Shown here piece by piece: positions 1,818-24,842 of a stretch of 64,000 bases of DNA. Numbering within the stretch: position 1 is the first letter of the stretch; every line of letters starts with the position of its first letter. Both the position numbers and the translations under genes were made by a program. Source of the stretch: Candidatus Omnitrophota bacterium (GTDB lineage Bacteria > Omnitrophota > Gorgyraeia > Zapsychrales > Zapsychraceae); assembly GCA_020053475.1 (NCBI GenBank), contig JAGVNC010000084.1, positions 4,201 through 68,200 on the forward strand, in the 5' to 3' direction. The notes beneath the pieces were generated by a model that was not told the origin of the DNA, did no database searches, and saw nothing but the letters and a program-made list of their open reading frames with translations.

Positions 1818-1926
1818 TTAAACTCAAAACTCTAAACTCTAAATAAATTCAAAATTCAAAACCCAAATGTTTGAGTTTGATCCTTTGAGTTTATTTAGGA
1901 TTTTGGATTTAGGGTTTGGAGTTTTC
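1818..1926. repeat. Family-A intergenic hairpin repeat (degenerate YTAAA/CAAAA units, imperfect inverted repeat), copy 1
   Basis: aaactcaaaactctaaactctaaataaattcaaaattcaaaacccaaatg is followed by its approximate reverse complement tttgagttt...atttaggattttggatttagggtttggagtttt. The same architecture recurs at 3772, 6529 and 24736. Confidence 0.6.
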
Positions 1927-2187
1927 TGTGTTATCCATCTTCATGATCATCTCGCCTTCTTTGGCGAGGCCCATCTTTTCACGGGCGACCTTCTCTAAAT
2001 ACACAGGATCATCTTCTAAGCGACGCTTTTCTTCATGCAAGGCTAGATTCTCTTCTTTCAATTCAACGATCTTCTGCCTATATTCTTCGTTCCTGCGATT
2101 CAAGTCCCGCTTCTGGGAATACGACGGAACAAAAATGAACAACAAAAAAACTCCAAAGACAATCAGCCAGAAATATTGTTTGAACAT
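1909..2187 (-). CDS. ftsB: cell division protein FtsB/DivIC family (septum formation initiator)
   Basis: 92 aa with an N-terminal TM helix followed by a coiled coil (EEYRQKIVELKEENLALHEEKRRLEDDPVYLEKVAREKMGL), located directly downstream of eno as in many bacteria. Confidence 0.55.
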   Translation of the reverse strand: MFKQYFWLIVFGVFLLFIFVPSYSQKRDLNRRNEEYRQKIVELKEENLALHEEKRRLEDDPVYLEKVAREKMGLAKEGEMIMKMDNTENSKP

Positions 2188-2253
2188 GTTAAGTCTACAC
2201 CCTCACTCTGGTTCGGGTGTAAAATTTTTTGGTCTTTGACAGATCAAAAAATT

Positions 2254-3652
<1,399 letters not shown>

Positions 3653-3771
3653 TGCCAAATTATCACAGTTTGTTATCAAAGTCAAGCCCGCTATAGGCCC
3701 TGCAGATGGCCCGGGAATAGAGAATTCCTGCCTTTTGCGTTCCTGGGGTTTGTGGTATACTTAAGCAAATG

Positions 3772-3893
3772 AAATCCAAAATCCTAAACTCTAAATTCCA
3801 AATAAACTCAAAATTCAAAATACAAAACATCATTTGTCTTTTGGATTTTAGATTTATTTAGGATTTAATGTTTTGAGTTTAGGGTTTTATTAA
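3772..3893. repeat. Family-A intergenic hairpin repeat, copy 2 (divergent eno / ftsH-like spacer)
   Basis: aaatccaaaatcctaaactctaaattccaaataaactcaaaattcaaaatacaaaacatcatttg / tcttttggattttagatttatttaggatttaatgttttgagtttagggtttt. Confidence 0.6.
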
Positions 3894-3919
3894 ATATTTC
3901 TTTAGAAAGGCCACGGGAC

Positions 3920-5608
3920 ATGAAAAAATTCATCGTTTTTCTTAAACTGAACTGGTTAAAAATCATTCTAGGAATCCTCCTCCTCGCTACGATCGTCGGC
4001 TGTTTTTACTTCATCCGTTATTGTTTCATCAGTTTCTCCGGCCTCGAAAATTTCAGCAAAAAAACCATTGCCGGGCAAATGGCCCTTCTGTTGCCGATGT
4101 TTGCCCTTGTTCAGCTCATCACCCTGCCAATCATGTTGGGAATGCAATATTACTTTATGCAAGGCGGCGGATTAGGCAAAGTGGGCACCGAAAAACTTTC
4201 CAAAGCCGAAGTTAATGTGAAATGGGACGAAGTGATCGGGATGGAAGGCGCGAAACGTGAAGCCTGGGAAATCGTCAAACTTTTGAAGGATCGTTCGCTT
4301 CTCAAAGCCATTGGCGGAAAAATCGTCAAAGGGACGCTCATGATCGGCCCGCCGGGATGCGGGAAAACGTATCTGGCCAAGGCCATTGCTACCGAATGCG
4401 GGTTACCGATGATCTCCGCGGTGGGAAGCGAATTTGTCGGGATGTTCGTCGGCCAAGGCACGGCGCGCATGAAATCTCTTTTTAAACAAGCGCGCGGCAT
4501 GGCATCCCTGGAAGGCGGCTGCATTATTTTCATCGATGAGATTGATTCCTTTGCCAGGCCCCGTGGGGCCGATATGGGATTTGGCGGCGGACGCTTAGAC
4601 ATGAACGCCACAATCAATCAGTTCTTGACCGAAATGGATGGGTTACGCCGTCATGAAAACAACATCATCGTGATCGCAGCCACCAACGTCGCGGAAAATG
4701 AACTAGATTCCGCGATTACCCGCGCCGGACGCTTTGACCGCAAAATCCACATTTCCAAACCTAATCTTGAAGAGCGCAAAGATCTTTTCAAATTCTATTT
4801 ATCCCGCGTGAATGCCGACTCAAACTGTGATGCTGATTTGCTGGCGCGTAAGGCTTTGGGATTCTCCCCTTCCGATATCGACAGCATGGTCCGCGAATCC
4901 GGCTTGATCGCCCTGCGCGAAAAAACGGATAAAATTACGATGAAATTTTTAAACGAAGCGTATGACAGGGTGAGCTTTGGCCTGAAATCCAACATCACAT
5001 TAACCAAAGAAGAAAAAGTCTGGACCGCGTATCACGAAGCCGGCCATGCGGTGATTGCTTATCTCACGCATCCAACCAACGACGTCATCAAAGCCACCAT
5101 CATTCCGCATAAGGGAGCGTTGGGATTTGTATCACAGCGGCCCGTTGAAGAACTGCATTCGTCCAATCGTGAACACTTATTGGCCAACATCAAAGTGAAT
5201 GTGGCCAGTTACGTAGCTGAACAATTAAAATTTAATACAACATCGAGCGGTGTCGGCGGCGGACGCGGGAGTGACTTTGACAGCGCCATGCGCATCGCCC
5301 GCGCCATGGCCTACAGCTTTGGCATGGGAAAATCGGGATTGATCGGTGATTTTGCCGCAACCGCCGATGGGCATGGGAATTTACAAATTTCGGAAAAGAC
5401 CAAAGAAATGCTCGATAACGACGTGCAGGAAATCCTCCAAGATTGCATCAAAGAAGTCCGTCAAATCCTAACGGATAAAAAAGATTTACTAGAATACTTT
5501 GCCCAAGAACTATTACGCAAAGAAGAACTCGAATACGATGACATTGTCGCGATCTTCGATAAATTCAATCTTAAATCCGCCGCTCGTACGCAGATCAAAA
5601 TTTCATGA
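3920..5608 (+). CDS. FtsH-family ATP-dependent zinc metalloprotease paralog (AAA+ plus M41 peptidase) without a periplasmic domain
   Basis: Two N-terminal TM helices about 25 aa apart. Walker A GPPGCGKT, Walker B IIFIDEIDS, second region of homology ATN...RAGRFDR, and HEAGHA zinc motif followed by M41-type C-terminal blocks. 562 aa. Confidence 0.75.
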   Translation: MKKFIVFLKLNWLKIILGILLLATIVGCFYFIRYCFISFSGLENFSKKTIAGQMALLLPMFALVQLITLPIMLGMQYYFMQGGGLGKVGTEKLSKAEVNVKWDEVIGMEGAKREAWEIVKLLKDRSLLKAIGGKIVKGTLMIGPPGCGKTYLAKAIATECGLPMISAVGSEFVGMFVGQGTARMKSLFKQARGMASLEGGCIIFIDEIDSFARPRGADMGFGGGRLDMNATINQFLTEMDGLRRHENNIIVIAATNVAENELDSAITRAGRFDRKIHISKPNLEERKDLFKFYLSRVNADSNCDADLLARKALGFSPSDIDSMVRESGLIALREKTDKITMKFLNEAYDRVSFGLKSNITLTKEEKVWTAYHEAGHAVIAYLTHPTNDVIKATIIPHKGALGFVSQRPVEELHSSNREHLLANIKVNVASYVAEQLKFNTTSSGVGGGRGSDFDSAMRIARAMAYSFGMGKSGLIGDFAATADGHGNLQISEKTKEMLDNDVQEILQDCIKEVRQILTDKKDLLEYFAQELLRKEELEYDDIVAIFDKFNLKSAARTQIKIS

Positions 5609-6525
5609 ACGCCCGGACGTTCGTCTTAGCTCTCCTCGGCCTTAGTATTTTCATCACCGGCTGCGGCCCGTCTCCCGTAAACGAAAAGAAAATCGCTTCG
5701 TCCGAGGCTTACACAAAATTCCTGCAAATCGCTAAAGAAGACTACAATCTTGAGCCCGTCACTCACTGGGTGAAAAATACACTGTGGATTTATTTACCGA
5801 TCACGGAAAGTTTGTTCGATTTAAAAGCCAAGGATGCCTCTCCAACCAACGACCAACCATCGGAGAAATATAATATTCAATTTATTGATGGAGCCTATCA
5901 GGATCGACGGTTTGTGATTACTTACGACATTGCCAAAGCACGGGTTTATCCCAAAGATTACGGCTACGGCACATCCTATTCCCAAGAGTATCAGCATAAG
6001 CAGCGCAATCTCATGACAGCCATCACACGCGCTTTTGAAAATGCTCAAGAAAAACCGGAATTCCTTGTCATCGTCATCGCTGACATCAACAAAGGCATTG
6101 AGCTCAAAATGACCGTGGCTTATCAGGATTTAGACCGCGCGTCAAAAGATCAGACATTTTATGAAGAGTACGCTTATCGCGCTGTCTTGACGCCTCCTCA
6201 AGGCAACACGGCCATCATTGATGACAAGACAGGAACGCATCTTGATTACAAACCGGTGGCGTGGCCGGATTTTCTCGCCAAACAAATCGTCTATCGGATC
6301 CAGTTCAAATACCAGCAAAGCTCGTTCCCTCCGACGGATACGCCCGAGCAAACAATCCTCTCGGCCGTGGCCCAAACGCTTAAGGCGTACAATTTCACGG
6401 ATTATGCTGGGGTTGTCTTAAGAAATTTGGCTTCCGATGAGACGAAGGTCGTCGATCAAGCGGCCATCGCTGCGTTGCCTACCGAAGAATCAAAGGGAAG
6501 GTTGATTGAGATTAAATTTCGTTAA
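5605..6525 (+). CDS. lipoprotein of unknown function, co-translated with the FtsH-like protease
   Basis: ATGA start/stop overlap with the upstream gene. Signal peptide with lipobox LSIFITGCG. No recognisable catalytic motif. Confidence 0.5.
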   Translation: MNARTFVLALLGLSIFITGCGPSPVNEKKIASSEAYTKFLQIAKEDYNLEPVTHWVKNTLWIYLPITESLFDLKAKDASPTNDQPSEKYNIQFIDGAYQDRRFVITYDIAKARVYPKDYGYGTSYSQEYQHKQRNLMTAITRAFENAQEKPEFLVIVIADINKGIELKMTVAYQDLDRASKDQTFYEEYAYRAVLTPPQGNTAIIDDKTGTHLDYKPVAWPDFLAKQIVYRIQFKYQQSSFPPTDTPEQTILSAVAQTLKAYNFTDYAGVVLRNLASDETKVVDQAAIAALPTEESKGRLIEIKFR

Positions 6526-6528
6526 AGC

Positions 6529-6659
6529 AAACTCAAAACTCTAAATCCTAAACAAATCCAAAACTCAAAATCCTAAACCCAAAATAAACTCAAAACATAA
6601 AATCCAAAAAATTTGGATTTTGTATTTTGGGTTTGTTTAGAGTTTAGGATTTAGGGTTT
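6529..6659. repeat. Family-A intergenic hairpin repeat, copy 3 (convergent lipoprotein / purN spacer)
   Basis: aaactcaaaactctaaatcctaaacaaatccaaaactcaaaatcctaaacccaaaataaactcaaaacataaaatccaaaaaa / tttggattttgtattttgggtttgtttagagtttaggatttagggtttc. Confidence 0.6.
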
Positions 6660-7259
6660 CTCAACAATTTCCACCCTTCTCCCCTTCATTGTCAATCTTC
6701 CCTCGACAAAGAGCTGGATCGCTTTCGGATAGATGCGGTGTTCGATTTTGTGAATTTTTTCGGTAAGAGTTTCGATCGTATCGCTTTCAGCGATCTTGAT
6801 CGCGTCCTGCAGGATAATGGGGCCGTGGTCCATTTTCTCGTCGACAAAATGGACCGTTGCACCGGTCACTTTAGCGCCGTAGGTAAACGCATCTTTGATG
6901 CCGTCAAGGCCTTTAAATGATGGCAACAACGACGGATGGATGTTTAGGATTTTACGCGCATAAGTTTTTACAAAAAATGCCGATACTAACCGCATATACC
7001 CGGCCAGGACGATAAAATCAATCTGTTCCTGCTTCAAATGGATGGTGAGTTGCCGGTCATAGCTCGTCGGGGTCGCGTAGTCCTGGGGATTCAAAAACAA
7101 TGTTTTGATGCCGGCGTCTTGGGCCCGCTTAAGGGCAGGGGCTTTACGGTTGTTGGACACGACTAACGCCAATTCTCCGGTAATCGTTCCGGCCTTGACC
7201 GCATCGATAATGGCCTGCAGATTAGATCCATGCCCGGAAGCAAAGACTGCGAATTTCAT
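6651..7259 (-). CDS. purN: phosphoribosylglycinamide formyltransferase
   Basis: MKFAVFASGHGSNLQAIIDA...NIHPSLLPSFKGLD...HFVDEKMDHGPII, the classic PurN blocks; 202 aa. Confidence 0.85.
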   Translation of the reverse strand: MKFAVFASGHGSNLQAIIDAVKAGTITGELALVVSNNRKAPALKRAQDAGIKTLFLNPQDYATPTSYDRQLTIHLKQEQIDFIVLAGYMRLVSAFFVKTYARKILNIHPSLLPSFKGLDGIKDAFTYGAKVTGATVHFVDEKMDHGPIILQDAIKIAESDTIETLTEKIHKIEHRIYPKAIQLFVEGRLTMKGRRVEIVEKP

Positions 7260-7267
7260 TTTAAATT

Positions 7268-7316
7268 ATCCTTTTTTAAAAGTCACTCGTCGCTAGTCTC
7301 TCGTTGCTAGAGACGA
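7268..7316. repeat. Family-D palindromic repeat (tctcgtctct ... agagacgaga core)
   Basis: cactcgtcgctagtctctcgttgctagagacgagaggcgagc. A second copy with the same core lies at 53036-53088. Confidence 0.4.
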
Positions 7317-7356
7317 GAGGCGAGCACCGAGAGACTGATGACTCTTTACTCAACAA

Positions 7357-8643
7357 TTATGCCATGCCGACCCCAGCAACCGCAAGGGTCGATTTGCGGG
7401 TCTTCCATAATCCCACTCCTCCATACACAGCGCAACCCATCCCGACGACCGATAGAATCCAACCCTTGTCGACAAACTCCGACACCCAGGAACTAATGAG
7501 CATCGCCACCAGAAAAGCAAAATGGATGACAATTTCCATCGAGCTAAAGACCTTGCCGCGCATTTCCTCATTACTGACCAAATGGATAATTGTATTCGAC
7601 GCCACAAAGACCGGCCCGATCGTGAATCCCCAAACACAGGCTAAAATCATCCCTAAGAAAATATTGGGGTATTGATAGATCAACATCGCAAATGTCAGAA
7701 GCATCAATCCTCCGGCCATTAAACACGCGCCGATGGTCCTTTGCCAAGAGATATTTTTCCCCCACTTGCCATAGGCCATGACACCGCTAAAAAGGCCGAT
7801 CACCAAAAATACAGCCAAAATCCCCAAGTCTTTGGTGACGCTATGAAACCTCTCCTGGATAAAGACAATCATGACGACATAAATCGAACCCGCTGCGGCC
7901 AAAAGGACAAAAAATGTATTCATCACAAAACGAATTTCAGATTGTTTAAATAGATACATGACCCCTTCGCGCATTTCATCCCACAGGGACTTTTTGATGG
8001 TAACGGCAATTTCTTTAGTGCGCTGGAGAATCATGGTCCGCGTCGGCCGGTACGATAATAACCTCCAGGGAAGGCGCATATTAAATAAAAGGAACGCGGA
8101 AATAAAAAATGTAATGGAATCGATGAGAAAGCCGTTGCGGGCGCCAAAATATTCGATGAGGAAAGCCCCCACCATCCCCCCTAAGCCCGCGGCAATCATT
8201 CCCGTCGTGGTGACCAACGAATTGGCCTTCAATAAACTCTCCGAGCCAACAACGTCAGGGATGATCGACATTTTGGCCGGAACATAAAAACGGCTGCAAC
8301 AAAAACTTAAAAAAACCACAATATAAATAGGAATCATCGACTCCCAGAAAATAAAAACGAACGGAATGGTCAAGATCAACATCCCGCGGATCAAATCACA
8401 GATCAATAACGTTGTGCGTTTGTCCCAGCGGTCCACAAGCACCCCGGCAAACGGCTGCACCAAAAAAACAGGAATGATCGTAAACGCAAGCAGCTTGGCC
8501 AACCCAAGGGTGGATGATCCTGAAGAGCGTTCGGCAATGAGCCCGATCAGCGCCAATTGATGAACGCGGTCCCCAAACTGGGAAATCAATTGGGCCAACC
8601 ACAGATGTGAAAAATTACGATTTTTGATCAGAAATCCTATCAT
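7357..8643 (-). CDS. MFS transporter
   Basis: 428 aa, about 12 TM segments, and an N-terminal FGDR-type motif typical of major facilitator proteins. Confidence 0.7.
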   Translation of the reverse strand: MIGFLIKNRNFSHLWLAQLISQFGDRVHQLALIGLIAERSSGSSTLGLAKLLAFTIIPVFLVQPFAGVLVDRWDKRTTLLICDLIRGMLILTIPFVFIFWESMIPIYIVVFLSFCCSRFYVPAKMSIIPDVVGSESLLKANSLVTTTGMIAAGLGGMVGAFLIEYFGARNGFLIDSITFFISAFLLFNMRLPWRLLSYRPTRTMILQRTKEIAVTIKKSLWDEMREGVMYLFKQSEIRFVMNTFFVLLAAAGSIYVVMIVFIQERFHSVTKDLGILAVFLVIGLFSGVMAYGKWGKNISWQRTIGACLMAGGLMLLTFAMLIYQYPNIFLGMILACVWGFTIGPVFVASNTIIHLVSNEEMRGKVFSSMEIVIHFAFLVAMLISSWVSEFVDKGWILSVVGMGCAVYGGVGLWKTRKSTLAVAGVGMA

Positions 8644-10670
8644 AATCCTAACTTTGTTAAAGCCTGCCGGCCTTCTTGCGCCAAAGGATGAGTGGCATTG
8701 TGCGACAACACATAATCAAACATTTGCCTGGCTTTCCCGACGTCCCCTTTGCTCAAATACGCCCATCCTAACACGGCCTGCGCCTGGTCTTCCTGGACCA
8801 ATGATGGTTGATTTGTTTCAACCAAATAAATGGCCTGATCATAAAATCGATGGGCATAAAGCTCTTCGGCAAAAAACACCAAAATACGTTTCATATTATA
8901 CCGTTTCTTAAAAAGAGTATCCATCACTTGCTGATATTTATCCTTTTGATGGTCCAGAAGATAGCTCATGGCCAAATATTGCAGGATAGAAACGTCGAAG
9001 GGGCTTAGATAAACGGCCTTTTCAAGATATTGAATGGCTTTAGAGTATTCCCCCTGCCGATAATGGGCCTCGCCCAACAGCCGATATCCGTCGATGTTTT
9101 CAGGGTCGTGTGTGACGACGTCCTCAAGCCCCTTTAACCCTTCATCAATTTTGCCTGTTTCCAATTCACAAACAGCTAACTCAACACGCGCCTCGAAATT
9201 TTCGGGATTGAACTCCACTGCCTGTTCTAAATATTTGTTGGCTTGAATGTAATCGCCTTGGGCGTGATAAATATTCCCTAACCGTTTGATCCACAAACTC
9301 TTTTTAGCGGGTGATTGCTGACGATCAATCATGGATTGGACGGCGTCACGGTCGTCATTATATTTCATTAATAGCTGCTCGAAGGCGATGGATGGCCGGC
9401 TCTCTTTCTGGGCCACCCGGCCCAACAGATGCTGTTCCGTCGTCCAGTGGGCATTGCTCCATACGGTAGCACCGGTAAAATAAATCAGGAGTAAACTGAA
9501 AAATATTTTTTGCCAACGGGATTGCAGATGGACCAGAATGGTCGCTAGGATTAACACAAGCCCTAATGAAGAAAAATAAAGAAAATGCTCCGACAGATAG
9601 GGGCCGATCTTCATCAACATCCGTCGCGTAATGAATAAAGATAATGACCCAATCATTAACCACAGCCAGCCCAAGATTAACGCTTTTCTAGCATCCGTAA
9701 GTGTTGGCTTGATGGCCCACACCCGATAACTCCCGGCGCCCAAGAGTGTCAATCCGATCAAAATCAGAACATGATGGACCCCGGGTATTTGCCACGCGAG
9801 AGAGAACATTGTCCACGGGAAAAGAAATCGCATGTTATATTCGAGGCTTAAAAGAAGCCAATCGGCCAGGGCCTTCAAAGATAAATGGTGTAATTGCGGG
9901 TCACGGATGATCGGATAAAAATTTAAGCGAAAGAGATAATAACTCAATGCCAACAAAAAAAGAGCGATGAGCCCCAGCTTTATCCGCCGATGATTGATTG
10001 TTGCAGGATGAACCATGCTTAAACAACCTGCGAATAAAGGCAATAAAAGGCTCGCTTCTCTTGATAAAAGAGCGGCCGTGAATCCCAGGATGATGAATAG
10101 AAACCAGGCAGGATTAGTTCCTGCTGATCCATAGCGCCAGAATCCGATCAAGCAAGCTAAAGAAAAGAATGTTTGCAATAAATCGGCGCGGCCGGAGATG
10201 TAATTCACGGCCCATTCGTTAGTGGGCAGCACGCTAAATAATAAGCCTGCGATCAACGCTAACGAGCGTTGCTGAAATATCAGCCACAATAAATAATAAA
10301 TCAGCCAGGCATTCGCCGCGTGAATGAGCACATTGACCACTCGAAATCCCCAGGGGGCCAGCCCGGTCAATTGGGCATTGAGTGCCAAGGATAAATGCAC
10401 GAGCGGCCGGTAATATCCTAAATTTTCGGCGGTGGCACCCGATGCTGGGTCCGATCCTTTAGCGGCCGACGCTTTAAAAGCATCAAAAAAATCCCGCGAC
10501 CAAACGGTCTTGATTAATTCAGGCTGTTGAATGACAGGGTTTTGTTCGACCACCACATGCGCGTCGAGAATGTATTCACTGTTCAAGCCCAATGAGTAGA
10601 TGATGCAATTAAGCAAAACGAAAAAAACGAACGTGGCAGCAGGAGAAGACGTTAGGCGTGGGGGAATCAA
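8640..10670 (-). CDS. TMTC/PMT-like GT-C family membrane protein with C-terminal TPR repeats
   Basis: N-terminal polytopic region with a YYRPLVHLS loop motif shared with the adjacent paralog. C-terminal about 250 aa of TPR-like repeats. TTG start with a 4-nt overlap to the upstream gene. Confidence 0.55.
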   Translation of the reverse strand: MIPPRLTSSPAATFVFFVLLNCIIYSLGLNSEYILDAHVVVEQNPVIQQPELIKTVWSRDFFDAFKASAAKGSDPASGATAENLGYYRPLVHLSLALNAQLTGLAPWGFRVVNVLIHAANAWLIYYLLWLIFQQRSLALIAGLLFSVLPTNEWAVNYISGRADLLQTFFSLACLIGFWRYGSAGTNPAWFLFIILGFTAALLSREASLLLPLFAGCLSMVHPATINHRRIKLGLIALFLLALSYYLFRLNFYPIIRDPQLHHLSLKALADWLLLSLEYNMRFLFPWTMFSLAWQIPGVHHVLILIGLTLLGAGSYRVWAIKPTLTDARKALILGWLWLMIGSLSLFITRRMLMKIGPYLSEHFLYFSSLGLVLILATILVHLQSRWQKIFFSLLLIYFTGATVWSNAHWTTEQHLLGRVAQKESRPSIAFEQLLMKYNDDRDAVQSMIDRQQSPAKKSLWIKRLGNIYHAQGDYIQANKYLEQAVEFNPENFEARVELAVCELETGKIDEGLKGLEDVVTHDPENIDGYRLLGEAHYRQGEYSKAIQYLEKAVYLSPFDVSILQYLAMSYLLDHQKDKYQQVMDTLFKKRYNMKRILVFFAEELYAHRFYDQAIYLVETNQPSLVQEDQAQAVLGWAYLSKGDVGKARQMFDYVLSHNATHPLAQEGRQALTKLGL

Positions 10671-12493: not shown

Positions 12494-12500
12494 GAGTAAA

Positions 12501-12573: not shown

Positions 12574-12751
12574 AAATTTCTTTAATGATCTAAGAAAGAT
12601 TTGCTGAAGTCCCTTTAGGGACGCCAGCAAAGATCATTCCCAAAAACTGAATTATTGTCCTACCTCCGCCAAACATCTTGGCGGACTCGCCACGCGTTGT
12701 GCCTGCCTGCCGGCAGGCAGGGCGGAAGCATGGCCTTTATTTTATTTCGAT

Positions 12752-13855: not shown

Positions 13856-13896
13856 ACAGATCAACAAAAATGAAACGCTATTTTAACCAAGAGTCG

Positions 13897-16871: not shown

Positions 16872-17528
16872 TTATTCTCCGAAGTCCTCGATGATCGGGA
16901 GAATATCCCTTATTTGAACAACGACGTTAAATGGCTTGAGCGCGGCCAATTCTTCCCGCGTACTCGAACCTGTTGCCACCGCGACGGTCCTGATGTTCGC
17001 CCGTTGCCCGGTTTCGACGTCAATGATCATATCTCCAACGTACAAGGCCTGCTGAGGCATTAACGATAATTGTCTTAAGATATGGTTCAACATATCCGGT
17101 TGTGGTTTAGGACGAGCCACTTGATCGGCACAAACCACTTGTGCGAAATAAGAACGAATCGCTAAATTGTCTAAAATGATTTCTGTAAATATCGATGGAC
17201 GGTTACTGGCAATGGCCATTAAAAAATTTTTGCGCTTAAGATCCCGCAGTAACTCCGGGACTCCCGGCAAAAATTTCGTCCCGGATTTTAAGGCCTGCCC
17301 GTGATGTCCCCGATAAATCGCCAGTGTCTGTTCGACTAAATTCGGCGGAGCAAATTGTTCGATCAGGTGACTGTCTCCCCAGCCCACATTTCGTTGCACC
17401 GTCATGTCATCAATCAGCGGAAGCCCCATTGTATTAAACGCATAATTGAGGCTCTTGGAGACAGCCCTGTACGCGTCTACCAGTGTTCCATCCAAATCGA
17501 AAATAATGAGTTTTAGGGGCTCAGTCAC
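16872..17528 (-). CDS. HAD-superfamily hydrolase (phosphoglycolate phosphatase-like)
   Basis: IIFDLDGTLVDA motif I, SN motif II, and a C-terminal GD..D block. Confidence 0.7.
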   Translation of the reverse strand: MTEPLKLIIFDLDGTLVDAYRAVSKSLNYAFNTMGLPLIDDMTVQRNVGWGDSHLIEQFAPPNLVEQTLAIYRGHHGQALKSGTKFLPGVPELLRDLKRKNFLMAIASNRPSIFTEIILDNLAIRSYFAQVVCADQVARPKPQPDMLNHILRQLSLMPQQALYVGDMIIDVETGQRANIRTVAVATGSSTREELAALKPFNVVVQIRDILPIIEDFGE

Positions 17529-17707
17529 TTTTTTAAGGAATAGAGGACAAATAATCCGGATAATGCCAAGCCTAAGCCAATAACACCTTTAAAAAACGTG
17601 ATGACATCCGGCCACCAAAGTAAAATCAATGTGATGCCTAAAATCAGCGTAAAACTGCCAACAACGTAAAGTAAAAAAGTGCGATAATCAGAAGAGGGAT
17701 TACTCAT
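17525..17707 (-). CDS. small two-TM membrane protein (ORF track reports a longer 17525-17821 frame; likely start is the ATG at 17707)
   Basis: MSNPSSDYRTFLLYVVGSFTLILGITLILLWWPDVITFFKGVIGLGLALSGLFVLYSLKK. Overlaps the acyltransferase stop by 8 nt. Confidence 0.3.
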   Translation of the reverse strand: MSNPSSDYRTFLLYVVGSFTLILGITLILLWWPDVITFFKGVIGLGLALSGLFVLYSLKK

Positions 17708-18662
17708 TGATGGCTCCTTCTGTTGATGGTGGTGCCACAACCGACGATTCCGTCGGACGGCTTTTCCAGCGTCGGTGCATCCATCCCCATTCTTGGGGAT
17801 AGCGGCGAATATATAATTCAATGAGTTGGGTCATTTTCGCTGTATTGATCAGGATTGTCTCCTGCTCATCGCGGCCTTCCTCCAGTATCAAGGGGGGCTC
17901 GACGATAATCTTATGGGTATCATCCGGTTGGCGGATCATAAACATCGGGACTAAAGGCGCCCCCGTTCGTTTGGCAAAAATGACGGGGCCCGTCGCGGTG
18001 GCCGCTTTTTGTCCGAAAAAATCAACAAACACGCCCCCCCGGCTTCCAAAATTTTGATCCAAAAGGACCAAAAGCAGTTCGTTATTACGCAACACTTTTA
18101 GAGACGTATCGACACATTCTTTGCGCGGCTGGCTATAAATTGTATTCAAGCCTAATTTTGTCCTCTGGGCGACAAAATATTTCTCGATATTTTCATCTCT
18201 GGCCGGGCGCATGATGGCGTTTGTTTGATAGCCTTCTTGAACGCAGCGTAACAGCATCAAGGGGAAATTGCCAAAGTGGCCGCTCACCGCGATGACGCCT
18301 TTCCCCTGCCGAAAAGCCTCATCTAAATAATGTTTTCCTTCAAAGGAGACTCGCTCTTTGATCATCGGTGTATGTTCCAAAAAATAAATCAATTCCACTA
18401 AGCCTTTGCCCACGTTCTGAAAACAGTTCCTGGCGACTTGGCGGATTTCTTCGTCCGATTTCTCCTTCCCAAAAGCAATGTGTAAACTTTCAAAGGCGAT
18501 TTTTCTTTGTCGAATGAGGAGGGGATAGGCCAAGGCCATCATTCCCTGGGAAATGGCTTGGACAACACGGTAGGGCAACATTGTAAAAATCCCCGTAAAG
18601 AAAAAAAGAGCGTTACGGGCTAACGCCCTTTTCATTTTTTTTATCTCATCGTTGATGTTCAT
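17700..18662 (-). CDS. lysophospholipid acyltransferase family protein (LpxL/HtrB-like lipid A late acyltransferase)
   Basis: N-terminal TM anchor, HFGNFP block, and overall LPLAT-like layout; 320 aa. Confidence 0.6.
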   Translation of the reverse strand: MNINDEIKKMKRALARNALFFFTGIFTMLPYRVVQAISQGMMALAYPLLIRQRKIAFESLHIAFGKEKSDEEIRQVARNCFQNVGKGLVELIYFLEHTPMIKERVSFEGKHYLDEAFRQGKGVIAVSGHFGNFPLMLLRCVQEGYQTNAIMRPARDENIEKYFVAQRTKLGLNTIYSQPRKECVDTSLKVLRNNELLLVLLDQNFGSRGGVFVDFFGQKAATATGPVIFAKRTGAPLVPMFMIRQPDDTHKIIVEPPLILEEGRDEQETILINTAKMTQLIELYIRRYPQEWGWMHRRWKSRPTESSVVAPPSTEGAINE

Positions 18663-18709
18663 GGCAAAACCAGAAACCTCGAAAGCAGATGCGGTGGGAA
18701 GAATTATAT

Positions 18710-19492
18710 TTATTTGTTGAAAACATCTCGTACCGTCGAAAGAAGCATCTTGGGATCAACGGGTTTTGTTAAATGGGCGATCGCCCCCATCGCGATTTCA
18801 GCATTAATATCGTCTGGCGAATCTTTGGCCGTCAAAAAAATGATGGGAATATGTTTTGTTTGGCTATTCTGCTTTAAATTTTTGCACACATCTCTCCCCT
18901 TAATCCCCGGTAAAATAACGTCCAGAATAATCAGATCCGGCAATTGCGATGTCGCCACCTGAATCCCATCTTCCCCGGATTCAGCTGTTAACACAGAATA
19001 ACCGCTTGAAATAAGAATAGGCCGCACAGTCTTTAAAAGCATTGCATCATCGTCAACAATTAAAATAGATTGCCGTTTCTGTTGTTCCATGCGCCCTCCC
19101 TGCCCCGCCTTGGCGGGGATTGTAAAAAAGATAACGCCTAATGTTATTCCTGTCGACAGCAACGCAGGGATCAAATCGACAAAGCTTGGTGTATTCTCTG
19201 AAGCAATCACATTCCCTACCCAAGCGATGGTCAAAATCCATGTTAATACGCTAGAGGCATACTGCAACACCGTCCCCAGCTTCTTTCCTAAAATAGAAAA
19301 GATGGCTGCTAAAAAATGAGCCCCGGCAATCACGGCCAGATAAAGGATCAACGTCGATGGATAACTCACGCTGGAGATTTGTTGTTCGGCATACGCACTA
19401 ATGATCACAGGCAGGGTAAAAAGCAAAACGCGGGCAGAAACAATCATTTGCACCCACAATAAAATCATTCGGCTGATCAATTTCTTCTCCAT
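18710..19492 (-). CDS. membrane-anchored receiver-domain protein (4 TM helices fused to a CheY-like REC domain; no output domain)
   Basis: C-terminal MEQQKRQSILIVDDD...LILDVILPG...FLTAKD is a canonical REC domain. The N-terminal 125 aa are four hydrophobic helices. A hairpin-plus-SD module sits exactly before the internal Met. Confidence 0.6.
   Translation of the reverse strand: MEKKLISRMILLWVQMIVSARVLLFTLPVIISAYAEQQISSVSYPSTLILYLAVIAGAHFLAAIFSILGKKLGTVLQYASSVLTWILTIAWVGNVIASENTPSFVDLIPALLSTGITLGVIFFTIPAKAGQGGRMEQQKRQSILIVDDDAMLLKTVRPILISSGYSVLTAESGEDGIQVATSQLPDLIILDVILPGIKGRDVCKNLKQNSQTKHIPIIFLTAKDSPDDINAEIAMGAIAHLTKPVDPKMLLSTVRDVFNK
19094..19118 (-). promoter_or_regulatory. Family-C hairpin-plus-SD module (CCCCGCCAAGGCGGGG-CA-GGGAGG) 4 nt upstream of the internal ATG at 19090
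   Basis: Seen directly. Same composite at 19500-19523 and 44552-44576, each time followed by ATG after 4-8 nt. Confidence 0.4.
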
Positions 19493-19499
19493 GCGGCAG

Positions 19500-19523
19500 C
19501 TCCCTGCCCCGCCCTGGCGGGGC
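19500..19523 (-). promoter_or_regulatory. Family-C hairpin-plus-SD module upstream of the receiver-protein start codon (19492)
   Basis: Minus strand reads GCCCCGCCAGGGCGGGGCAGGGAGCTGCCGC-ATG. Confidence 0.4.
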
Positions 19524-19564
19524 TTTTACTGAGTTGAGACTACATTATAGTAAAATTTAATCAG

Positions 19565-21154
19565 TTAACAAATCGAATTTTTTGTTCTTTTCCAAGACGT
19601 GAAGAACCCCCCTAAAATACAGAGAAAACATAGATAGATAAAAATATCCCCAAATGCCGTATAGAGGCTTTGGGAAGAATTCAACACCACATCTTCTTTT
19701 TTAAAGCCGGCCACATACGTCATTTTCCCTTGATTGTTTTGAACCCCGCTCGTCAGTCTTCCATACGGATCAATAAAAACACTGACGCCGGTATTGGCAG
19801 AACGGACAAAACTTCGGCGGTTTTCAACGCTCCGGAACACCGTCGACTGCACATGCATCCACGGCGCATTGGAATCCTTAAACCATCCGTCATTGGTGAT
19901 GTTCACTAAAAATTGAGCCCCCTTCTGAGTCAAGCGGCGGGAAAGTTCGGGGACCGCATCTTCAAAACAAATCAAAATCCCCATCACATAAGGGCTCCCC
20001 TGGGTCGATTTGACGGGATCTAGCGATAACGTGTTCAATTCAGCCCCACGGGTAAAATCATCTACCGGGATAATATTTTGCAGAGGCTTAGGGATGCCCC
20101 ATCGGCCCGGCAGATATTCTCCAAAAGGGACCAAATGCACCTTATCATAACGCTGCATGGTTTTCGCGTCGCTTAAAAAAAGAATCGCCGAATTATAATA
20201 TTGGCCCCCTTTTTGTGTCACAGAACCGAAAACAATAGGGATTTTGACCTTTTGCATCATCTGTTTAACCTTCATGAGCAAATTTAAATCCTGCGGCAAA
20301 AATCCCGGGAATGACGTTTCCGGCCAAATCATCAACATCGGCTTTTCTTGGGCCGCTGTTTTAGTCAACGCAATATGTTGATCCAAATTGTCTTCCCAGG
20401 ATTCCGGGCGCCATTTTGATTCCTGAGAAATGTTTGGCTGGATTGTTGTCACGCTGATAATCGGGTTAACGGACCGATCAGACAAACGATAAAATCCATA
20501 CATCAAGACCAGCCCAACAGCAATAACTGTAATCAACAAGCTCTTGAGCAATTCCCGATAAAAAACATTGTCCCGGCGCAAAATCTTCTGGACAATCTCC
20601 TTGAACACATAATTGACCATCACAATCAAAAAAGAGACTCCATACATCCCCGTCACATCGGCAACTTGAATCAACGCTAAATTCTGATATTGGGCATACG
20701 CCAACGATCCCCAATTAAATCCCGTTAAAAAATGTCCGCGAATAAATTCTAATGTCACCCATAAGCTGGGAATCATCATCAATTTGAACGAAATGGACCG
20801 ATGGCCCACCAACGCATAGGACAAACCGAATAAACCAAAATACAAAGACAAATAAAGGATGAATAAGACGACAGCAACGCCGGCCAAGAAAGAAAACCAT
20901 GTGGTCAGATGAAATAACCAATAAAAAACAATCGAACAGAACACAATCCCAAAAACGTATCCCGCTCCGAAAGCCTGGCGCAATGATCGTTCTTCCAAAA
21001 CCCAAAATAGAGGGGCAAGGCCGACCCATGTCAAAATCCACAATCGGGGGGAAAAAAACGGCAGGGCCATCAAGAGAGCCGAAGCGAAGATAAGGATAAT
21101 ATCCCTTCGTCTAAATCCATATCGATTCACGGCGTTTTTGATCGACAACAACAT
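19565..21154 (-). CDS. lnt: apolipoprotein N-acyltransferase
   Basis: Polytopic N-terminus plus C-terminal CN-hydrolase domain (VVFGSVTQ...YDKVHLVPFGEYLP); 529 aa. Confidence 0.8.
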   Translation of the reverse strand: MLLSIKNAVNRYGFRRRDIILIFASALLMALPFFSPRLWILTWVGLAPLFWVLEERSLRQAFGAGYVFGIVFCSIVFYWLFHLTTWFSFLAGVAVVLFILYLSLYFGLFGLSYALVGHRSISFKLMMIPSLWVTLEFIRGHFLTGFNWGSLAYAQYQNLALIQVADVTGMYGVSFLIVMVNYVFKEIVQKILRRDNVFYRELLKSLLITVIAVGLVLMYGFYRLSDRSVNPIISVTTIQPNISQESKWRPESWEDNLDQHIALTKTAAQEKPMLMIWPETSFPGFLPQDLNLLMKVKQMMQKVKIPIVFGSVTQKGGQYYNSAILFLSDAKTMQRYDKVHLVPFGEYLPGRWGIPKPLQNIIPVDDFTRGAELNTLSLDPVKSTQGSPYVMGILICFEDAVPELSRRLTQKGAQFLVNITNDGWFKDSNAPWMHVQSTVFRSVENRRSFVRSANTGVSVFIDPYGRLTSGVQNNQGKMTYVAGFKKEDVVLNSSQSLYTAFGDIFIYLCFLCILGGFFTSWKRTKNSIC

Positions 21155-21155
21155 T

Positions 21156-21713
21156 TTATTGAAAGGCCTCTTTAACCCGCGGGCGGGTAAAATAGAACAT
21201 AAGGGTTAAGGAAAAGACAATATCCAACCCTGTATAAAAAGCAAATGAGATCACCGGGAATAAAGGGAATTTTAACAAAGATGTCCCAATCTGTTCAGGA
21301 AACACTGGGTAAGAATTTTGATCAAATGTCGTGCCGGGGGGGAACATCGTCATGAAAAACTGTTGTTCCTGGAGAAGAGCGATATTTTGAAAAATAAAAA
21401 AAGGGTGTTTCCAGTAAAGGCCGATAAGCGACAAGGCGCACATCACCAATAGGGACTTGCGCGCAACTTCTAAATGCTTTAATAATCCGACAGCGATCGC
21501 GATCGCCATTAATCTCCAGAAGATGGAGATGGCGTAACGGAAAGGAATGATCGCGGCGGGCAATTGCTGAAACATAAATTGATAGTAAGGATAGTTCAAC
21601 AGGCCCAGCAACTTATATGCAGCCGCGAAGATCAGTAACGAGGCGAAAATGGTTATTCCTGAAAGTTTTTTCTTTTCTTCGATGGATGTTGGCCGTATCA
21701 TCGACCGCAACAT
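21156..21713 (-). CDS. membrane protein of unknown function, translationally coupled to secA (ATGA at 21698-21701)
   Basis: About 5 TM helices. Alternative ATG at 21701 overlaps the secA TGA. Confidence 0.4.
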   Translation of the reverse strand: MLRSMIRPTSIEEKKKLSGITIFASLLIFAAAYKLLGLLNYPYYQFMFQQLPAAIIPFRYAISIFWRLMAIAIAVGLLKHLEVARKSLLVMCALSLIGLYWKHPFFIFQNIALLQEQQFFMTMFPPGTTFDQNSYPVFPEQIGTSLLKFPLFPVISFAFYTGLDIVFSLTLMFYFTRPRVKEAFQ

Positions 21714-24697
21714 TTTTTATATTTCTTTCCACTGCCGCAAGGGCAAGGATCGTTACGCCCCACTTTAGGGCCGCTTTTATGGGAAGATGCGACATTCGCC
21801 GCTTCCAAAGAAGCGGCAGGCATCGGTGGCGGGCTTCCCATCTGGCGCTGCTCAGCCATTTGAGCGACTGCTTGCGATAATCCTGAAGCTTCATTGTGAA
21901 TTGTGTGCTGTGGGATGGAGCTAAAAACACCTTTCAACCGCATTGACCGTTGGGCCGGCTGAAGTTTAAAGACCATTTCGACGATTTCTTCATCCATCAT
22001 GTCGTACATGCGCTGGAACATGGCAAAGGCTTCTTTTTTATATTCAATAAGTGGGTCCCGTTGGCCGTAAGAACGTAACCCAATGCCTTCTTTAACTTGG
22101 TCCATCGTATACAGATGGTCTTTCCATTTCAAATCAATCGTGTGCAAAAAGAGCATCCTCTCCATTTGGCGTATTGATTCAGACGAAATCTCTTGCTCCT
22201 TGGCTTGATATTGCGCTTTTAATCCTTCAAGAATCGTGGTGCGAATTTCCTCTGCCGTTTTTTGTTGTAATGTTTCTTTGGATTCATTCAAGGCAAAATT
22301 CAATTTTGACTTAAGGTACAGGTCTAATCCCTCGGAATCAAATCCATCCCCGTGAATGGAAGAATACGTTGCGATGGCCCGATCAATGGTGATTGTCAAT
22401 GAATCAAAGATCAAGTTTTTGATATCCTGGCTGTCTAAAATAAACCGGCGCAGGCTATAAATCACTTCCCGCTGTTTATTCATGACATTGTCGTATTCCA
22501 ACAGATGCTTGCGGATCTCAAAATTGTGCGTTTCCACTTTCTTTTGGGCATTCTCGATGGCATTGGTGAGCCAAGGATGTTCCAGCACCTGGCCCTCTTC
22601 CATTCCTAATCGGTCCATAATGGACATAATCCTGTCCGAGGCGAACAGCCGCATCAAATCGTCCTGCAAAGAAATAAAAAAACGCGAGGATCCCGGATCT
22701 CCCTGACGGCCTTGGCGGCCGCGCAGCTGATTATCGATCCGGCGGGATTCGTGGCGTTCGGTGCCTAACACATGCAACCCTCCGACGCTGACAACTTGAT
22801 CATGCTCTTCTTTGACTTTATCGCGGAACTGCTCCACAAACTTCTTTAATAGTTCTTGTTTCTGTTGATCGCCTTCATCACCTTGTAATTTCTGGGCCAG
22901 CAAACTTTGCGCCAAATGTTCCGCGTTGCCTCCTAAGACAATGTCGGTCCCGCGCCCCGCCATGTTGGTGGCGATCGTGACGGCTTGATAACGTCCGGCC
23001 TGGGCGATAATGTGCGCTTCCATTTCATGAAATTTCGCGTTTAAGACCTGGTGGGCAATCCCCTTTTGCTTGAGCAGGCGGGAGAGCATTTCGGATTTTT
23101 CGATCGAGATGGTCCCGACCAACACCGGTTGGCCGCGCTGATGACAATCGTCGATTTCTTTCACAACGGCGTCGAATTTTTCCTTGAGTGTTTTATAAAC
23201 ACAATCGGAATGATTGACTCTTTGCAATTTTTTGTTGGTGGGGATCACAATAACATCCAAATCGTAGATCTCTTTAAACTCCATCGCTTCCGTATAAGCC
23301 GTCCCCGTCATCCCTGATAATTTTTCGTATAATCGAAAATAATTCTGAAACGTGATCGTCGCCAACGTCTGATTTTCCCGTTCAATTTTAATGCCTTCTT
23401 TGGCCTCGACCGCTTGATGCAACCCATCCGACCAGCGCCGGCCCGGCATCAAACGGCCGGTAAATTCATCGACAATAATGACTTGGCCGTCGCGCAGGAC
23501 ATAATCCACGTCCAAGGCGAAGAACTCTTTAGCCTTGAGCGCCTGAAGAACGTGATGCCGGTATTCGATCGTGTCCATGTCATGGATGTTAGCGACCCCA
23601 AACAATTGGGCCGCCTTTTCCTCTCCGATCTCAGTCAGGGAAATTGATTTCGCTTTTTCATCAGCCAAATACTCAAATCCTTCACCAAGGTTGATTTCTT
23701 GATGTTTAGCATCAATTTCATCTTTTTCCGTAATGCGCCGGCCTTTGAGCTGCTGAGTGATTTGAAAGGCTCTGTAATATTTATCCGTCGATTCCTCCGC
23801 CGGACCGGAAATGATGAGCGGTGTACGGGCCTCGTCAATCAAAATGCTGTCGACTTCGTCCACGATGGCGAAATGATGGCCGCGCTGGACCATCTCTTCC
23901 TTAAAATTGACCATGTTATCGCGCAGATAATCAAACCCAAATTCATTATTCGTTCCATACGTAATATCGCAATTGTAGGCTTGCTGACGGGAGCGCGGGT
24001 CAATATCGTGTTGAATGACCCCGACGGTCAGGCCGAGAAATTCATACAGCGGCCCCATCCACTCCCTGTCGCGTTTGGCCAAATAATCGTTAACGGTGAC
24101 GACGTGGACGCCTTCGCCGGTCAACGCGTTAAGATACGCCGCTAATGTGGCCACAAGCGTCTTTCCTTCCCCGGTCGTCATTTCCGCGATGCTCCCCTGA
24201 TGCAGGACCATCCCGCCGATCAATTGCACGTCGAAATGGCGCATCCGTAAAACGCGTTTGCCCGTCTCGCGCACAACGGCAAAGGCTTCCGGCAAAATTT
24301 CCTCAAGGATTTTCTTTTTCTCTTTGCGATAATCTTCATGGGCCTTATCAATCTGTAAATTTAAATCTTCTTTCTCTTCTTTGTCCGTGTTGCCTTGAAA
24401 ATCTTTTTCCAATTTTTCCAAGGCCTGACGCTTGCCTTGGATGGCCTGCCGGTATTGTTGTTTAAAAATTTGTGCCTTGGCTTTTAATTCGCCGTCACTT
24501 AATTTAGACATGGATTCTTCTAATCCATTGATTTTAGAGACCGTCACGCACATTTTCTTTAATAGGGAAATAGACGGCAGAGGGAGATCCTGATGCAAAA
24601 GCACTTGCACTTTAGGGTTTAAACCGTCAATAAACCGCTGAGTATTCTTTAAAGCAGATTTTTTAATAAAAAAATCAAACATAATATTTACCATCAA
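21698..24697 (-). CDS. secA: preprotein translocase ATPase SecA
   Basis: 999 aa with DEAD-motor blocks and a C-terminal zinc finger CPCGSGKKYKKCCG. The track start is TTG; ATG at 24694 or 24682 more likely. Confidence 0.95.
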   Translation of the reverse strand: MMVNIMFDFFIKKSALKNTQRFIDGLNPKVQVLLHQDLPLPSISLLKKMCVTVSKINGLEESMSKLSDGELKAKAQIFKQQYRQAIQGKRQALEKLEKDFQGNTDKEEKEDLNLQIDKAHEDYRKEKKKILEEILPEAFAVVRETGKRVLRMRHFDVQLIGGMVLHQGSIAEMTTGEGKTLVATLAAYLNALTGEGVHVVTVNDYLAKRDREWMGPLYEFLGLTVGVIQHDIDPRSRQQAYNCDITYGTNNEFGFDYLRDNMVNFKEEMVQRGHHFAIVDEVDSILIDEARTPLIISGPAEESTDKYYRAFQITQQLKGRRITEKDEIDAKHQEINLGEGFEYLADEKAKSISLTEIGEEKAAQLFGVANIHDMDTIEYRHHVLQALKAKEFFALDVDYVLRDGQVIIVDEFTGRLMPGRRWSDGLHQAVEAKEGIKIERENQTLATITFQNYFRLYEKLSGMTGTAYTEAMEFKEIYDLDVIVIPTNKKLQRVNHSDCVYKTLKEKFDAVVKEIDDCHQRGQPVLVGTISIEKSEMLSRLLKQKGIAHQVLNAKFHEMEAHIIAQAGRYQAVTIATNMAGRGTDIVLGGNAEHLAQSLLAQKLQGDEGDQQKQELLKKFVEQFRDKVKEEHDQVVSVGGLHVLGTERHESRRIDNQLRGRQGRQGDPGSSRFFISLQDDLMRLFASDRIMSIMDRLGMEEGQVLEHPWLTNAIENAQKKVETHNFEIRKHLLEYDNVMNKQREVIYSLRRFILDSQDIKNLIFDSLTITIDRAIATYSSIHGDGFDSEGLDLYLKSKLNFALNESKETLQQKTAEEIRTTILEGLKAQYQAKEQEISSESIRQMERMLFLHTIDLKWKDHLYTMDQVKEGIGLRSYGQRDPLIEYKKEAFAMFQRMYDMMDEEIVEMVFKLQPAQRSMRLKGVFSSIPQHTIHNEASGLSQAVAQMAEQRQMGSPPPMPAASLEAANVASSHKSGPKVGRNDPCPCGSGKKYKKCCGR

Positions 24698-24735
24698 ATC
24701 CTAAATCCCCCGTGCCGTCCCGGCAGGGACGGTGC

Positions 24736-24842
24736 AAAACTCTAAACTCTAAATAAATACAAAACTCAAAATCTAAAATATTTTGATCATTTGAATTTTG
24801 GGTTTACTTTGGATTTAGGATTTTGAGTTTAGAGTTTTATTT
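24736..24842. repeat. Family-A intergenic hairpin repeat, copy 4 (prfB / secA spacer)
   Basis: aaaactctaaactctaaataaatacaaaactcaaaatctaaaatatttt / gatcatttgaattttgggtttactttggatttaggattttgagtttagagtttt. Confidence 0.6.

Follow-up and report, generated by a model that had tools for sequence, protein, structure and literature searches.

A palindrome of ordered heptads in the intergenic DNA of an Omnitrophota bacterium recurs in metagenome-assembled genomes labelled with many phyla and in tailed-phage contigs

What are the imperfect hairpins that occupy the spacers between ordinary housekeeping genes in a 64-kb stretch of the Candidatus Omnitrophota contig JAGVNC010000084.1 (hereinafter the window), and by what kind of process did they come to be there? 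An earlier reading, made from the letters alone (the sequence-only reading), had singled out four of them as copies of one intergenic repeat family. We find that they are indeed copies of one element, which consists of two inverted arms of degenerate heptads in a set order, and that the same architecture and consensus recur in at least 120 loci of metagenome-assembled genomes (MAGs) labelled with a dozen or more phyla. As to its nature, we see about even chances that it is a REPIN/MITE-like, non-autonomous interspersed palindrome whose heptads are read by a putative trans-acting protein.

The four hairpins all proved genuine, correctly placed and far beyond chance expectation. Each comprises an A/C-rich run, a short loop and an approximate reverse-complement T/G-rich run (~1820-1924, 3772-3887, 6529-6659 and 24737-24837), and all four sit in the first 25 kb of the window. 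A repeat finder delimits arms of 25-48 nt that are 71-83% complementary, bearing out the earlier description of the right arm as an approximate reverse complement of the left. Their fold energies range from -27 to -46 kcal/mol; when folded as single strands against 200 dinucleotide shuffles, 0/200 shuffles fold as well as any of the four (z-scores are given below). The pattern AAAYYCNAAAYAAAYNYAAA, with at most two mismatches, has nine matches in the window against 0.53 expected, and 9/9 fall inside the four copies. A hidden Markov model (HMM) of the arm, with 72 columns, recovers eight arms and, within copy 3, an internal duplicate, and finds no further arm in the 64 kb even at E<50. The copies and their contexts, read from open reading frame (ORF) calls and a tRNA call, are as follows:

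1820-1924, copy 1: between tRNA-Met (1733-1809, minus strand) and an ftsB/ftsL-like ORF (1909-2187, minus strand). Left arm 1820-1867, with outer heptads AAACTCA AAACTCT AAACTCT, hinge AAATAAA (1841-1847) and inner units TTCAAAA TTCAAAA CCCAAA; loop 1868-1869; right arm 1870-1924, with hinge TTTATTT (1890-1896) and outer heptads AGGATTT TGGATTT AGGGTTT GGAGTTT; z -4.65.

3772-3887, copy 2: the most regular copy, in the divergent spacer between eno (2254-3525, minus strand) and a gene for an FtsH-like AAA protease (3920-5608, plus strand), with four outer heptads on each side. Left arm AAATCCA AAATCCT AAACTCT AAATTCC, hinge AAATAAA (3800-3806), then CTCAAAA TTCAAAA TACAAAA; loop ~3828-3832; the right arm mirrors the left and ends AGGATTT AATGTTT TGAGTTT AGGGTTT; z -7.00.

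6529-6659, copy 3: fills the entire convergent spacer between an ORF (5605-6525, plus strand) and purN (6651-7259, minus strand). Left arm with a partial tandem duplication of 32-nt period, hence two hinges, AAACAAA (6550-6556) and AAATAAA (6582-6588); loop 6610-6611; right arm 6612-6659, with a 6-nt hinge TTGTTT (6633-6638) and three outer heptads; z -9.84.

24737-24837, copy 4 (core): between the prfB stop (24851) and secA, all on the minus strand. Left arm AAACTCT AAACTCT, hinge AAATAAA (24751-24757), then TACAAAA CTCAAAA TCTAAAA; loop ~24779-24789; right arm with a degenerate hinge TTACTT and outer heptads TGGATTT AGGATTT TGAGTTT AGAGTTT; z -4.92.

24697-24736, putative displaced outer left arm of copy 4: heptads AAATCCT AAATCCC (24697-24710), then a GC-rich hairpin.

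These contexts agree with those given earlier in all four cases, save that copy 1, formerly described only as downstream of ftsB, actually lies between the ftsB-like gene and tRNA-Met. The copies had also been called strictly intergenic, which is nearly but not wholly so, as two of them overlap gene ends: copy 1 provides the final five codons and TAA stop of the ftsB/ftsL-like ORF (...NSKP*) and copy 3 the final three codons and TAA of purN (...VEKP*). The PurN proteins of two relatives stop right after the conserved RRVEI/RRVEM.

To what does this hairpin owe its regularity? Its unit had been taken for pentamer-like, but is a heptad: Tandem Repeats Finder gives a period of 7 in 4/4 copies, a both-strand alignment of the four shows an invariant AAA every seven columns (consensus AAA-Y-Y-C-K), and the CTAAA and CAAAA strings noticed earlier are the conserved five-base core of YYC(T/A)AAA. 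The fuller anatomy rests on ~200 arms, drawn largely from loci collected by scanning GTDB (one genome per species) with a 27-nt degenerate seed whose hinge region is fixed, a source of ascertainment; these seeded loci total ~0.9 Mb. Read inwards, an arm usually has four outer heptads AAA-Y-Y-C-(G/T), of which the second or third is often a variant unit AAGCACG or AATATCG, then a 7-nt hinge AAA(C/T)AAA and two to four inner heptads YYCAAAA before a short loop. When inner and outer units are both read as YYCNAAA they are one and the same heptad (N = A inside, G/T outside), and the hinge is a 4-nt shift of its phase. One arm from elsewhere reads AAATCCG AAGCACG AAATTCG AAATCCG AAACAAA TTCAAAA TTCAAAT GTTCAAAAC, followed by the loop and the mirror image. 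Two such inverted arms of ~55-60 nt each make up the element, which measures ~105-130 bp in the window and ~130-165 bp in full copies elsewhere.

The order of parts is strict. In 67/67 close arm pairs the A-rich arm lies 5' of the T-rich arm with the inner ends facing, and the reverse order was seen in none; gaps between the paired arm matches are mostly 0-70 nt, and hinge-to-hinge spans cluster at ~75, ~90-97 and ~110 nt. Exactly four outer heptads are present in 128/192 arms, two to four heptads lie inside the hinge, and an inner motif TGWYCAAAAC is conserved. Conservation is 94-100% in the A and C columns, also in those that the seed pattern does not cover, and the two Y columns are divided ~50/50 between C and T. 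Five of the seven heptad positions are in this way near-invariant in every copy and phylum, and two float between C and T regardless of the partner arm. Two subfamilies can be told apart, a CG-type whose units end in G and a TA-type whose units end in T, to which the window copies belong. The telomere-like CCCTAAA flavour remarked on earlier is a trait of the TA-type and is absent from the AAATCCG or AAATTCG units of other genomes. TA-type heptads also bring a TAA every 7 nt, hence stops in all three frames and, because the element is palindromic, from either side. Among 50 delimited elements the outer ends are sharp and the flanks unrelated; the target-site duplications whose search had been proposed were not found in these flanks, nor was a common target motif, and no asymmetry between the arms orients the element beyond one dinucleotide beside the hinge.

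Copy 4 departs from this order in that a 25-nt GC-rich hairpin (24711-24735; CCGTCCC-GGCA-GGGACGG) interrupts its left side. It probably starts at 24697, judging from the two heptads there, with the left arm split by the GC hairpin; this would restore the usual four outer heptads. GC-palindrome insertions of the same kind are visible in three seeded loci (L085, L088, L093). Small GC-rich palindromes (CCTGCC...GGCAGG or CCGTCCC...GGGACGG) are further seen beside or inside heptad elements at 12689-12734 and 24711-24735 of the window and in L022, L080, L085, L088, L093 and L099, and may be a second repeat family that targets or accompanies the heptad element.

How far does the element reach? The sequence-only reading had supposed it lineage-specific and had proposed a search for further copies; such copies were found, far outside any one lineage. 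Carriers, by the record titles of the MAGs (short contigs may be mislabelled), include Omnitrophota, many orders of Planctomycetota, Aminicenantes/Acidobacteriota, many Patescibacteria groups, Nitrospirota, WOR-3, Desulfobacterota including Syntrophia-type members, Verrucomicrobia/Victivallales, Chloroflexota, Bacteroidales, Gammaproteobacteria and Clostridia. Between genomes, and across phyla, the consensus is ~76% identical. This breadth is not explicable by mis-binning or mis-assembly: several of the matches come from closed chromosomes or very long contigs, in records of 8.6 Mb and 3.4 Mb, both entered as chromosomes, and of 2.59 Mb and 0.5 Mb (carrier records include OY787460.1, CP070770.1 and the 2.59-Mb contig CAWDQE010000014.1). 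The seed pattern also matches 13 of 2.9 million viral contigs, several of which are true tailed-phage fragments that encode portal, major capsid and adaptor proteins. Three of these have three to four copies each in the short spacers of their structural modules:

L130, 8759-11392: copies between phage structural genes.
L133, 159-4079: likewise.
L136: likewise.

All carriers found are MAGs or metagenome contigs. A BLAST search of the full element against PLSDB plasmids and GenBank phages gave no match, although the low-complexity filter may mask such a query, and the element is not described in the searchable literature, whether sought by sequence string or by topic. The host of the window itself is placed in Omnitrophota by its enolase, which is 100% identical to a protein from a 77.9-kb contig and 79-85% identical to enolases named Candidatus Omnitrophota; a cyanobacterial origin was considered and rejected, given this placement and the lack of enrichment of HIP1. 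In two loci from MAGs labelled Aminicenantes and Deferrimicrobium (L038, ~3007-3220; L110, ~6353-6560) we noted a composite in which a solo arm is followed by a second hairpin of GCGCAGAT/ATCAGCG-type units, with ~140 nt conserved between the two; this is either a horizontal transfer or a binning error.

Is the hairpin itself what is being conserved? Arms within an element are 72% identical (as reverse complements) and arms of unrelated loci 70%. Using 20 elements of equal geometry from eight taxon labels, we redealt the partner arms among elements: pairing amounts to 81.3% with the true partner and 80.0% with the redealt ones, and pairs changed on both sides number 12 against a shuffled mean of 14.9. 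At the Y/R positions 178 cells are Watson-Crick pairs and 214 are not. The only co-varying columns are the last base of the heptad (T·A versus G·C) and the hinge base, and this co-variation is the difference between the CG-type and TA-type subfamilies; in mixed elements the last base agrees in 0.82 of comparisons within the same column and 0.69 between different columns. The evidence accordingly says that the hairpin is not, or at most weakly, under selection, contrary to the conserved secondary structure for which a test had been proposed earlier: because the arms are conserved individually and not by their pairing, the potential to form a hairpin follows incidentally from having a conserved sequence in two inverted copies. 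As a separate observation, in profile column 33 alone (the middle Y of the hinge-adjacent heptad) the two arms are anti-correlated (CC 12, CT 23, TC 22, TT 3; p = 5e-5).

Two tests for selection at the level of the transcript were null as well. Among 41 elements with same-strand flanking genes the sense strand is no more stable than the antisense by minimum free energy (MFE; 20 versus 21, Wilcoxon p = 0.68). Nor does a count of wobbles show a G·U bias of the sense strand (U·G 111 versus C·A 103, p=0.63). The terminator role suggested by the sequence-only reading fares no better: a terminator scan reports none of the four copies, which carry no canonical intrinsic-terminator signature, their stems being A/U-rich, 40-50 pairs long and periodically mismatched, unlike a short G+C-rich stem with a U tract. 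Rfam at gathering score recovers only tRNAs and no match to the element in the window or 15 loci, and at E-value thresholds adds only generic sub-threshold matches to miRNA-precursor hairpins.

Where is the element placed, and how readily does it come and go? By crude longest-ORF calls in the seeded loci, 40 element-bearing spacers are codirectional, 7 convergent and 7 divergent, against a background of 399/82/85 in the same loci. The element typically fills its spacer, with median distances of 11 nt from the stop of the preceding gene and 37 nt to the start of the following one. For instance, the rpsM-rpsK spacer is 128 nt with an element in a Patescibacteria MAG (L017) and ~12 nt without one in another MAG (L015). 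Similarly, three Omnitrophota relatives (L121-L123) with the same gene order purN-ORF-FtsH-like-eno-ftsB have empty sites at the positions of copies 1-3, and the purN/ORF spacer, which copy 3 fills over 125 nt in the window, measures ~5-15 nt in two of them; the arm HMM finds no arm in 49 kb of the three. The sites were compared at gene-end level, and the relatives used are at most 85% identical in enolase (protein database), the best among metagenome contigs reaching 82%. In one relative an IS110-family transposase gene (L121, 1-712) lies directly upstream of eno, the place taken by copy 2 in the window.

In 80 eno loci from metagenomes chosen regardless of the repeat (614 kb) there is one solo arm, against eight arms in the 64-kb window, and loci found through one element often hold further copies. 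Some genomes hold the family in abundance while close relatives lack it, and its copies are gained and lost quickly in any type of spacer, in chromosomes and in phages alike; presence in one genome and absence from related ones, a mark of mobile repeats, is what is observed here. Solo arms without a detectable partner account for 34/72 assessable cases. By eye, variable loops are shared between copies of one MAG in L064/L067, L088/L099 and L070/L114, whereas a loop-similarity statistic within versus between genomes was set aside, as the conserved inner motif confounds it and a single MAG dominates it. Arms are 82% identical within a genome against 76% between genomes, which gives no sign of a recent burst. 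No transposase, RAYT, autonomous parent or recurrent gene was found beside or between elements in the ~0.9 Mb of loci, and none among the window ORFs: arms 1.5-5 kb apart enclose housekeeping genes only, and the genes near or between elements encode thioredoxin, QueC, CoaE, glycosyltransferases, NTP-transferases, S13/S11 and others.

Among dispersed, hairpin-capable intergenic repeats the nearest analogues are, as the sequence-only reading had proposed, REP/BIME (REPIN), ERIC and MITE elements. With REPINs the heptad element shares the inverted two-arm doublet with a short spacer and hairpin capacity, and its short, non-coding, intergenic and multi-copy habit (PMC3337134, PMC3116915); shared too are the lack of a target-site duplication, decayed singlets beside doublets, the lack of an adjacent transposase at most copies and mosaics with other small repeats. 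It differs in that its arms are ~55-60 nt, A/C-rich, not self-complementary and without GTAG, whereas REPs are imperfect palindromes of 20-40 nt with a GTAG-type head; in that no RAYT is seen among the window ORFs or the genes by elements in the loci; in that REP families are confined to a genus or species while the heptad consensus spans many phyla and phages; and in that its copies within a genome are far more diverged. The MITE, ERIC and IRU class (Correia, RUP, Nezha, ERIC) likewise consists of sharp-ended, intergenic, imperfect palindromes of 100-150 bp (PMC10969869, PMC3184786) that vary in presence between relatives, can be transcribed along with their neighbours and can lengthen ORFs or end them. 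Of the traits that define MITEs, terminal inverted repeats and a small non-coding size are found in the heptad element; unlike them, it has no target-site duplication, is wholly heptad-periodic and crosses phyla, and no parent insertion sequence with matching terminal repeats was found for it in the ~0.9 Mb searched.

Head-to-tail, intergenic, multi-copy 7-nt units are also known from the cyanobacterial STRR, Beggiatoaceae TAACTGA and Xanthomonas GGGAATC repeats, and some STRR-class repeats form inverted arrays with hairpins between genes, for example hupS-hupL, with a patchy phylogeny that suggests horizontal spread (PMC2670836, PMC4679880, PMC4692102). Those are mostly simple direct arrays of one unit in variable copy number, whereas the heptad element is ordered, degenerate, two-armed, hinged and of fixed polarity; unit sequence and host range differ as well, the host here being an Omnitrophota bacterium. 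In the omega ribbon-helix-helix repressor of pSM19035 and other inc18 plasmids, one dimer binds each 7-bp heptad in direct and inverted runs. The likeness to our element, a 7-bp register with units in both direct and inverted orientation, goes no further than a mechanistic analogy: the omega consensus is WATCACW, its arrays stand at a few plasmid promoters and are not dispersed over a chromosome, and no ribbon-helix-helix partner was identified for the heptad element. To our knowledge, the omega heptads are the only well-studied precedent for protein recognition in a 7-bp register. Cold-shock proteins, which bind one heptanucleotide each, offer another precedent for a 7-nt register (PMC4679880).

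The patchy but copy-rich distribution, the empty orthologous sites, the indifference to orientation, the tolerance of operons and phage modules, the half-elements and the shared loops fit a reading as a mobile repeat. The lack both of a target-site duplication and of a linked transposase argues away from DDE-type MITEs and towards trans-mobilised elements such as REPINs (PMC3337134, PMC3116915), and the five fixed and two free positions per heptad, maintained across phyla, are the pattern expected of recognition by a protein in a 7-nt register. Such a protein would read the sequence heptad by heptad, with one subunit per 7 bp, and would be an enzyme akin to transposases or recombinases whose gene lies at another place in the genome, just as RAYT serves REPINs. 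The hairpin would follow from the inverted arrangement and could matter as a single-stranded DNA intermediate, not as a selected RNA stem; for the host, side effects would be TAA stops in all frames and both directions (TA-type) and a long A/U-rich hairpin inside transcripts.

Several points weigh against this trans-mobilised palindrome. Neither a transposase or RAYT nor an autonomous parent accompanies the elements in the loci or the window; the missing target-site duplication excludes ordinary DDE-type MITEs; and the identities of 82% within and 76% between genomes betray no recent burst. Conservation this strict at each position resembles purifying selection acting on every copy more than it does decaying selfish DNA, and ~76% identity across phyla needs either a very conserved mobilising protein together with horizontal transfer, or a host function. 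The data, moreover, carry the ascertainment of a hinge-fixed pattern, crude longest-ORF calls and the fallible MAG taxonomy of short contigs. A more specific proposal, which we put forward only tentatively, is that this is a previously undescribed class of repeat, of ordered degenerate heptads (AAAYYCK x4, hinge, YYCAAAA x2-4) present in carriers labelled with about a dozen phyla of mostly uncultured bacteria and in their tailed phages, and kept copy by copy by a putative protein that would read DNA, or single-stranded nucleic acid, in a 7-nt register, be it a new trans-mobilising enzyme or a widely conserved host factor.

On a rival reading the heptads would be a functional array of the host, that is cooperative sites for a chromosomal DNA-binding protein, with one dimer per 7 bp and a structural or regulatory rather than mobile role. 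Five fixed and two degenerate positions are typical of protein recognition, arm conservation does not depend on pairing, polarity and unit number are constant, and copies within a genome are not burst-like. A nucleoid protein, as once suggested for these hairpins, may bind them. We nevertheless think a host array unlikely, since the orthologous spacers of relatives are empty and most related genomes lack the family, divergent (promoter-containing) spacers are not preferred, copies overlap gene 3' ends and donate stop codons, genuine half-elements exist, copies occur in phage structural modules, and no candidate binding protein was identified. Somewhat more doubtful still is an RNA cis-element, which would terminate or attenuate transcription, be processed by RNase III or stabilise 3' ends, as proposed for REP and cyanobacterial STRR hairpins (PMC2670836). 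Folding far better than that of shuffles (z -4.6 to -9.8), positions in tight transcribed spacers such as prfB-secA, ftsB-tRNA, rpsM-rpsK and phage structural operons, and a palindrome that reads alike on both strands would all suit such a role. Against it, compensatory changes do not go beyond the subfamily-level T/G column, and the Y/R positions are mismatched oftener than paired; the sense strand has no advantage in MFE or in U·G over C·A; no canonical terminator signature and only generic sub-threshold Rfam matches are seen; convergent spacers are not enriched and divergent ones, occupied at the background rate, are not depleted; and a strong terminator between rpsM and rpsK, where one copy lies, would harm its host.

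A reading that dispenses with both recognition and function would have STRR-like heptanucleotide microsatellites arise by replication slippage and palindrome formation. Bacterial heptamer over-representation has been attributed to polymerase slippage (PMC4679880, PMC4692102), and the seeded loci do hold many unrelated period-7 tandem arrays (167, against 21 hexamer and 72 octamer arrays), which also occur outside heptad elements and are intergenic in 98/166 by the crude ORF calls; the window too holds (TTTAAGG)x6.6 and a GTTCAnn heptamer hairpin, copy 3 has its 32-nt internal tandem duplication, and arms differ in having 2 to 4 inner heptads. Yet the fixed number of outer heptads, the ordered variant units, the specific hinge and the TGWYCAAAAC motif are conserved across phyla at ~76% identity, and independent events cannot rebuild one ordered 60-nt arm, so that slippage is disfavoured and seems to us improbable. 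The heptad element is the most structured and most widely shared member of a loose class of heptamer repeats found in this search. Finally, an assembly or binning artefact shared by short-read MAGs would fit the confinement of the carriers found to MAGs and metagenome contigs and the empty PLSDB and GenBank phage searches, but is very nearly negligible, as copies lie between ordinary genes in very long contigs and closed chromosomes, differ in sequence from one another and are entered in frame by ORFs.

The palindrome with trans-acting reader that we prefer bears on two older literatures. REP/REPIN, ERIC and MITE elements have so far been treated as genus- or family-level phenomena, and heptanucleotide repeats have stood unexplained since ~1990; the element links both. 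Its consensus persists at ~76% identity across phyla with otherwise little non-coding sequence in common, and the element is also found inside phage structural operons. If there is a dedicated heptad-reading protein, it would represent a new system for recognising or mobilising DNA in the uncultured bacterial majority, and the element would serve to trace horizontal exchange between lineages living together in sediment and groundwater. If the class is indeed undescribed, it would provide a tractable entry to the question of why heptanucleotide repeats abound in bacterial intergenic DNA. For annotation, the altered gene ends (the purN and ftsB-like stops) recommend that such regions be masked or modelled in MAGs.

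Other repeats and genes of the window deserve brief mention. An imperfect inverted repeat just upstream of the eno start (3546-3652; units TAAAAGGG / CCCTTTAA) had been thought a related GGGTTTA-type repeat; we rejected it as a member of the family, as its G/T-rich arm comes first, giving it the opposite polarity, its period is ~8, its folding z is -3.3 and it has no similarity to the arm profile at E<50. The remaining observations are:

27228-27273: a near-perfect (TTTAAGG)x6.6 without inverted partner, overlapping the 3' end of a UbiA-like ORF (27264-27680) of 138 aa, which matches positions 22-114 of the 250-position UbiA profile and is possibly a truncated gene.

33694-40608: a single ORF of 2304 aa, with 55-60% G+C against ~46% elsewhere in the window.

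41596-43118: an ORF pair matching AbiEii toxin and AbiEi antitoxin (type IV toxin-antitoxin / abortive infection).

46612-46681: a near-perfect GC-rich palindrome of 35+35 nt without spacer (-52 kcal/mol, z -8.3), between a helix-hairpin-helix (HHH_3) ORF (46138-46494), which adjoins a competence-protein gene (Pfam Competence domain), and an ORF at 46736-48376.

58754-58835: a GTTCAnn heptamer hairpin (AAGTTCT CAGTTCA CGGTTCA TAGTTCA ... and its mirror; z -6.45), between the start of mnmG/gidA and a LacI-family gene.

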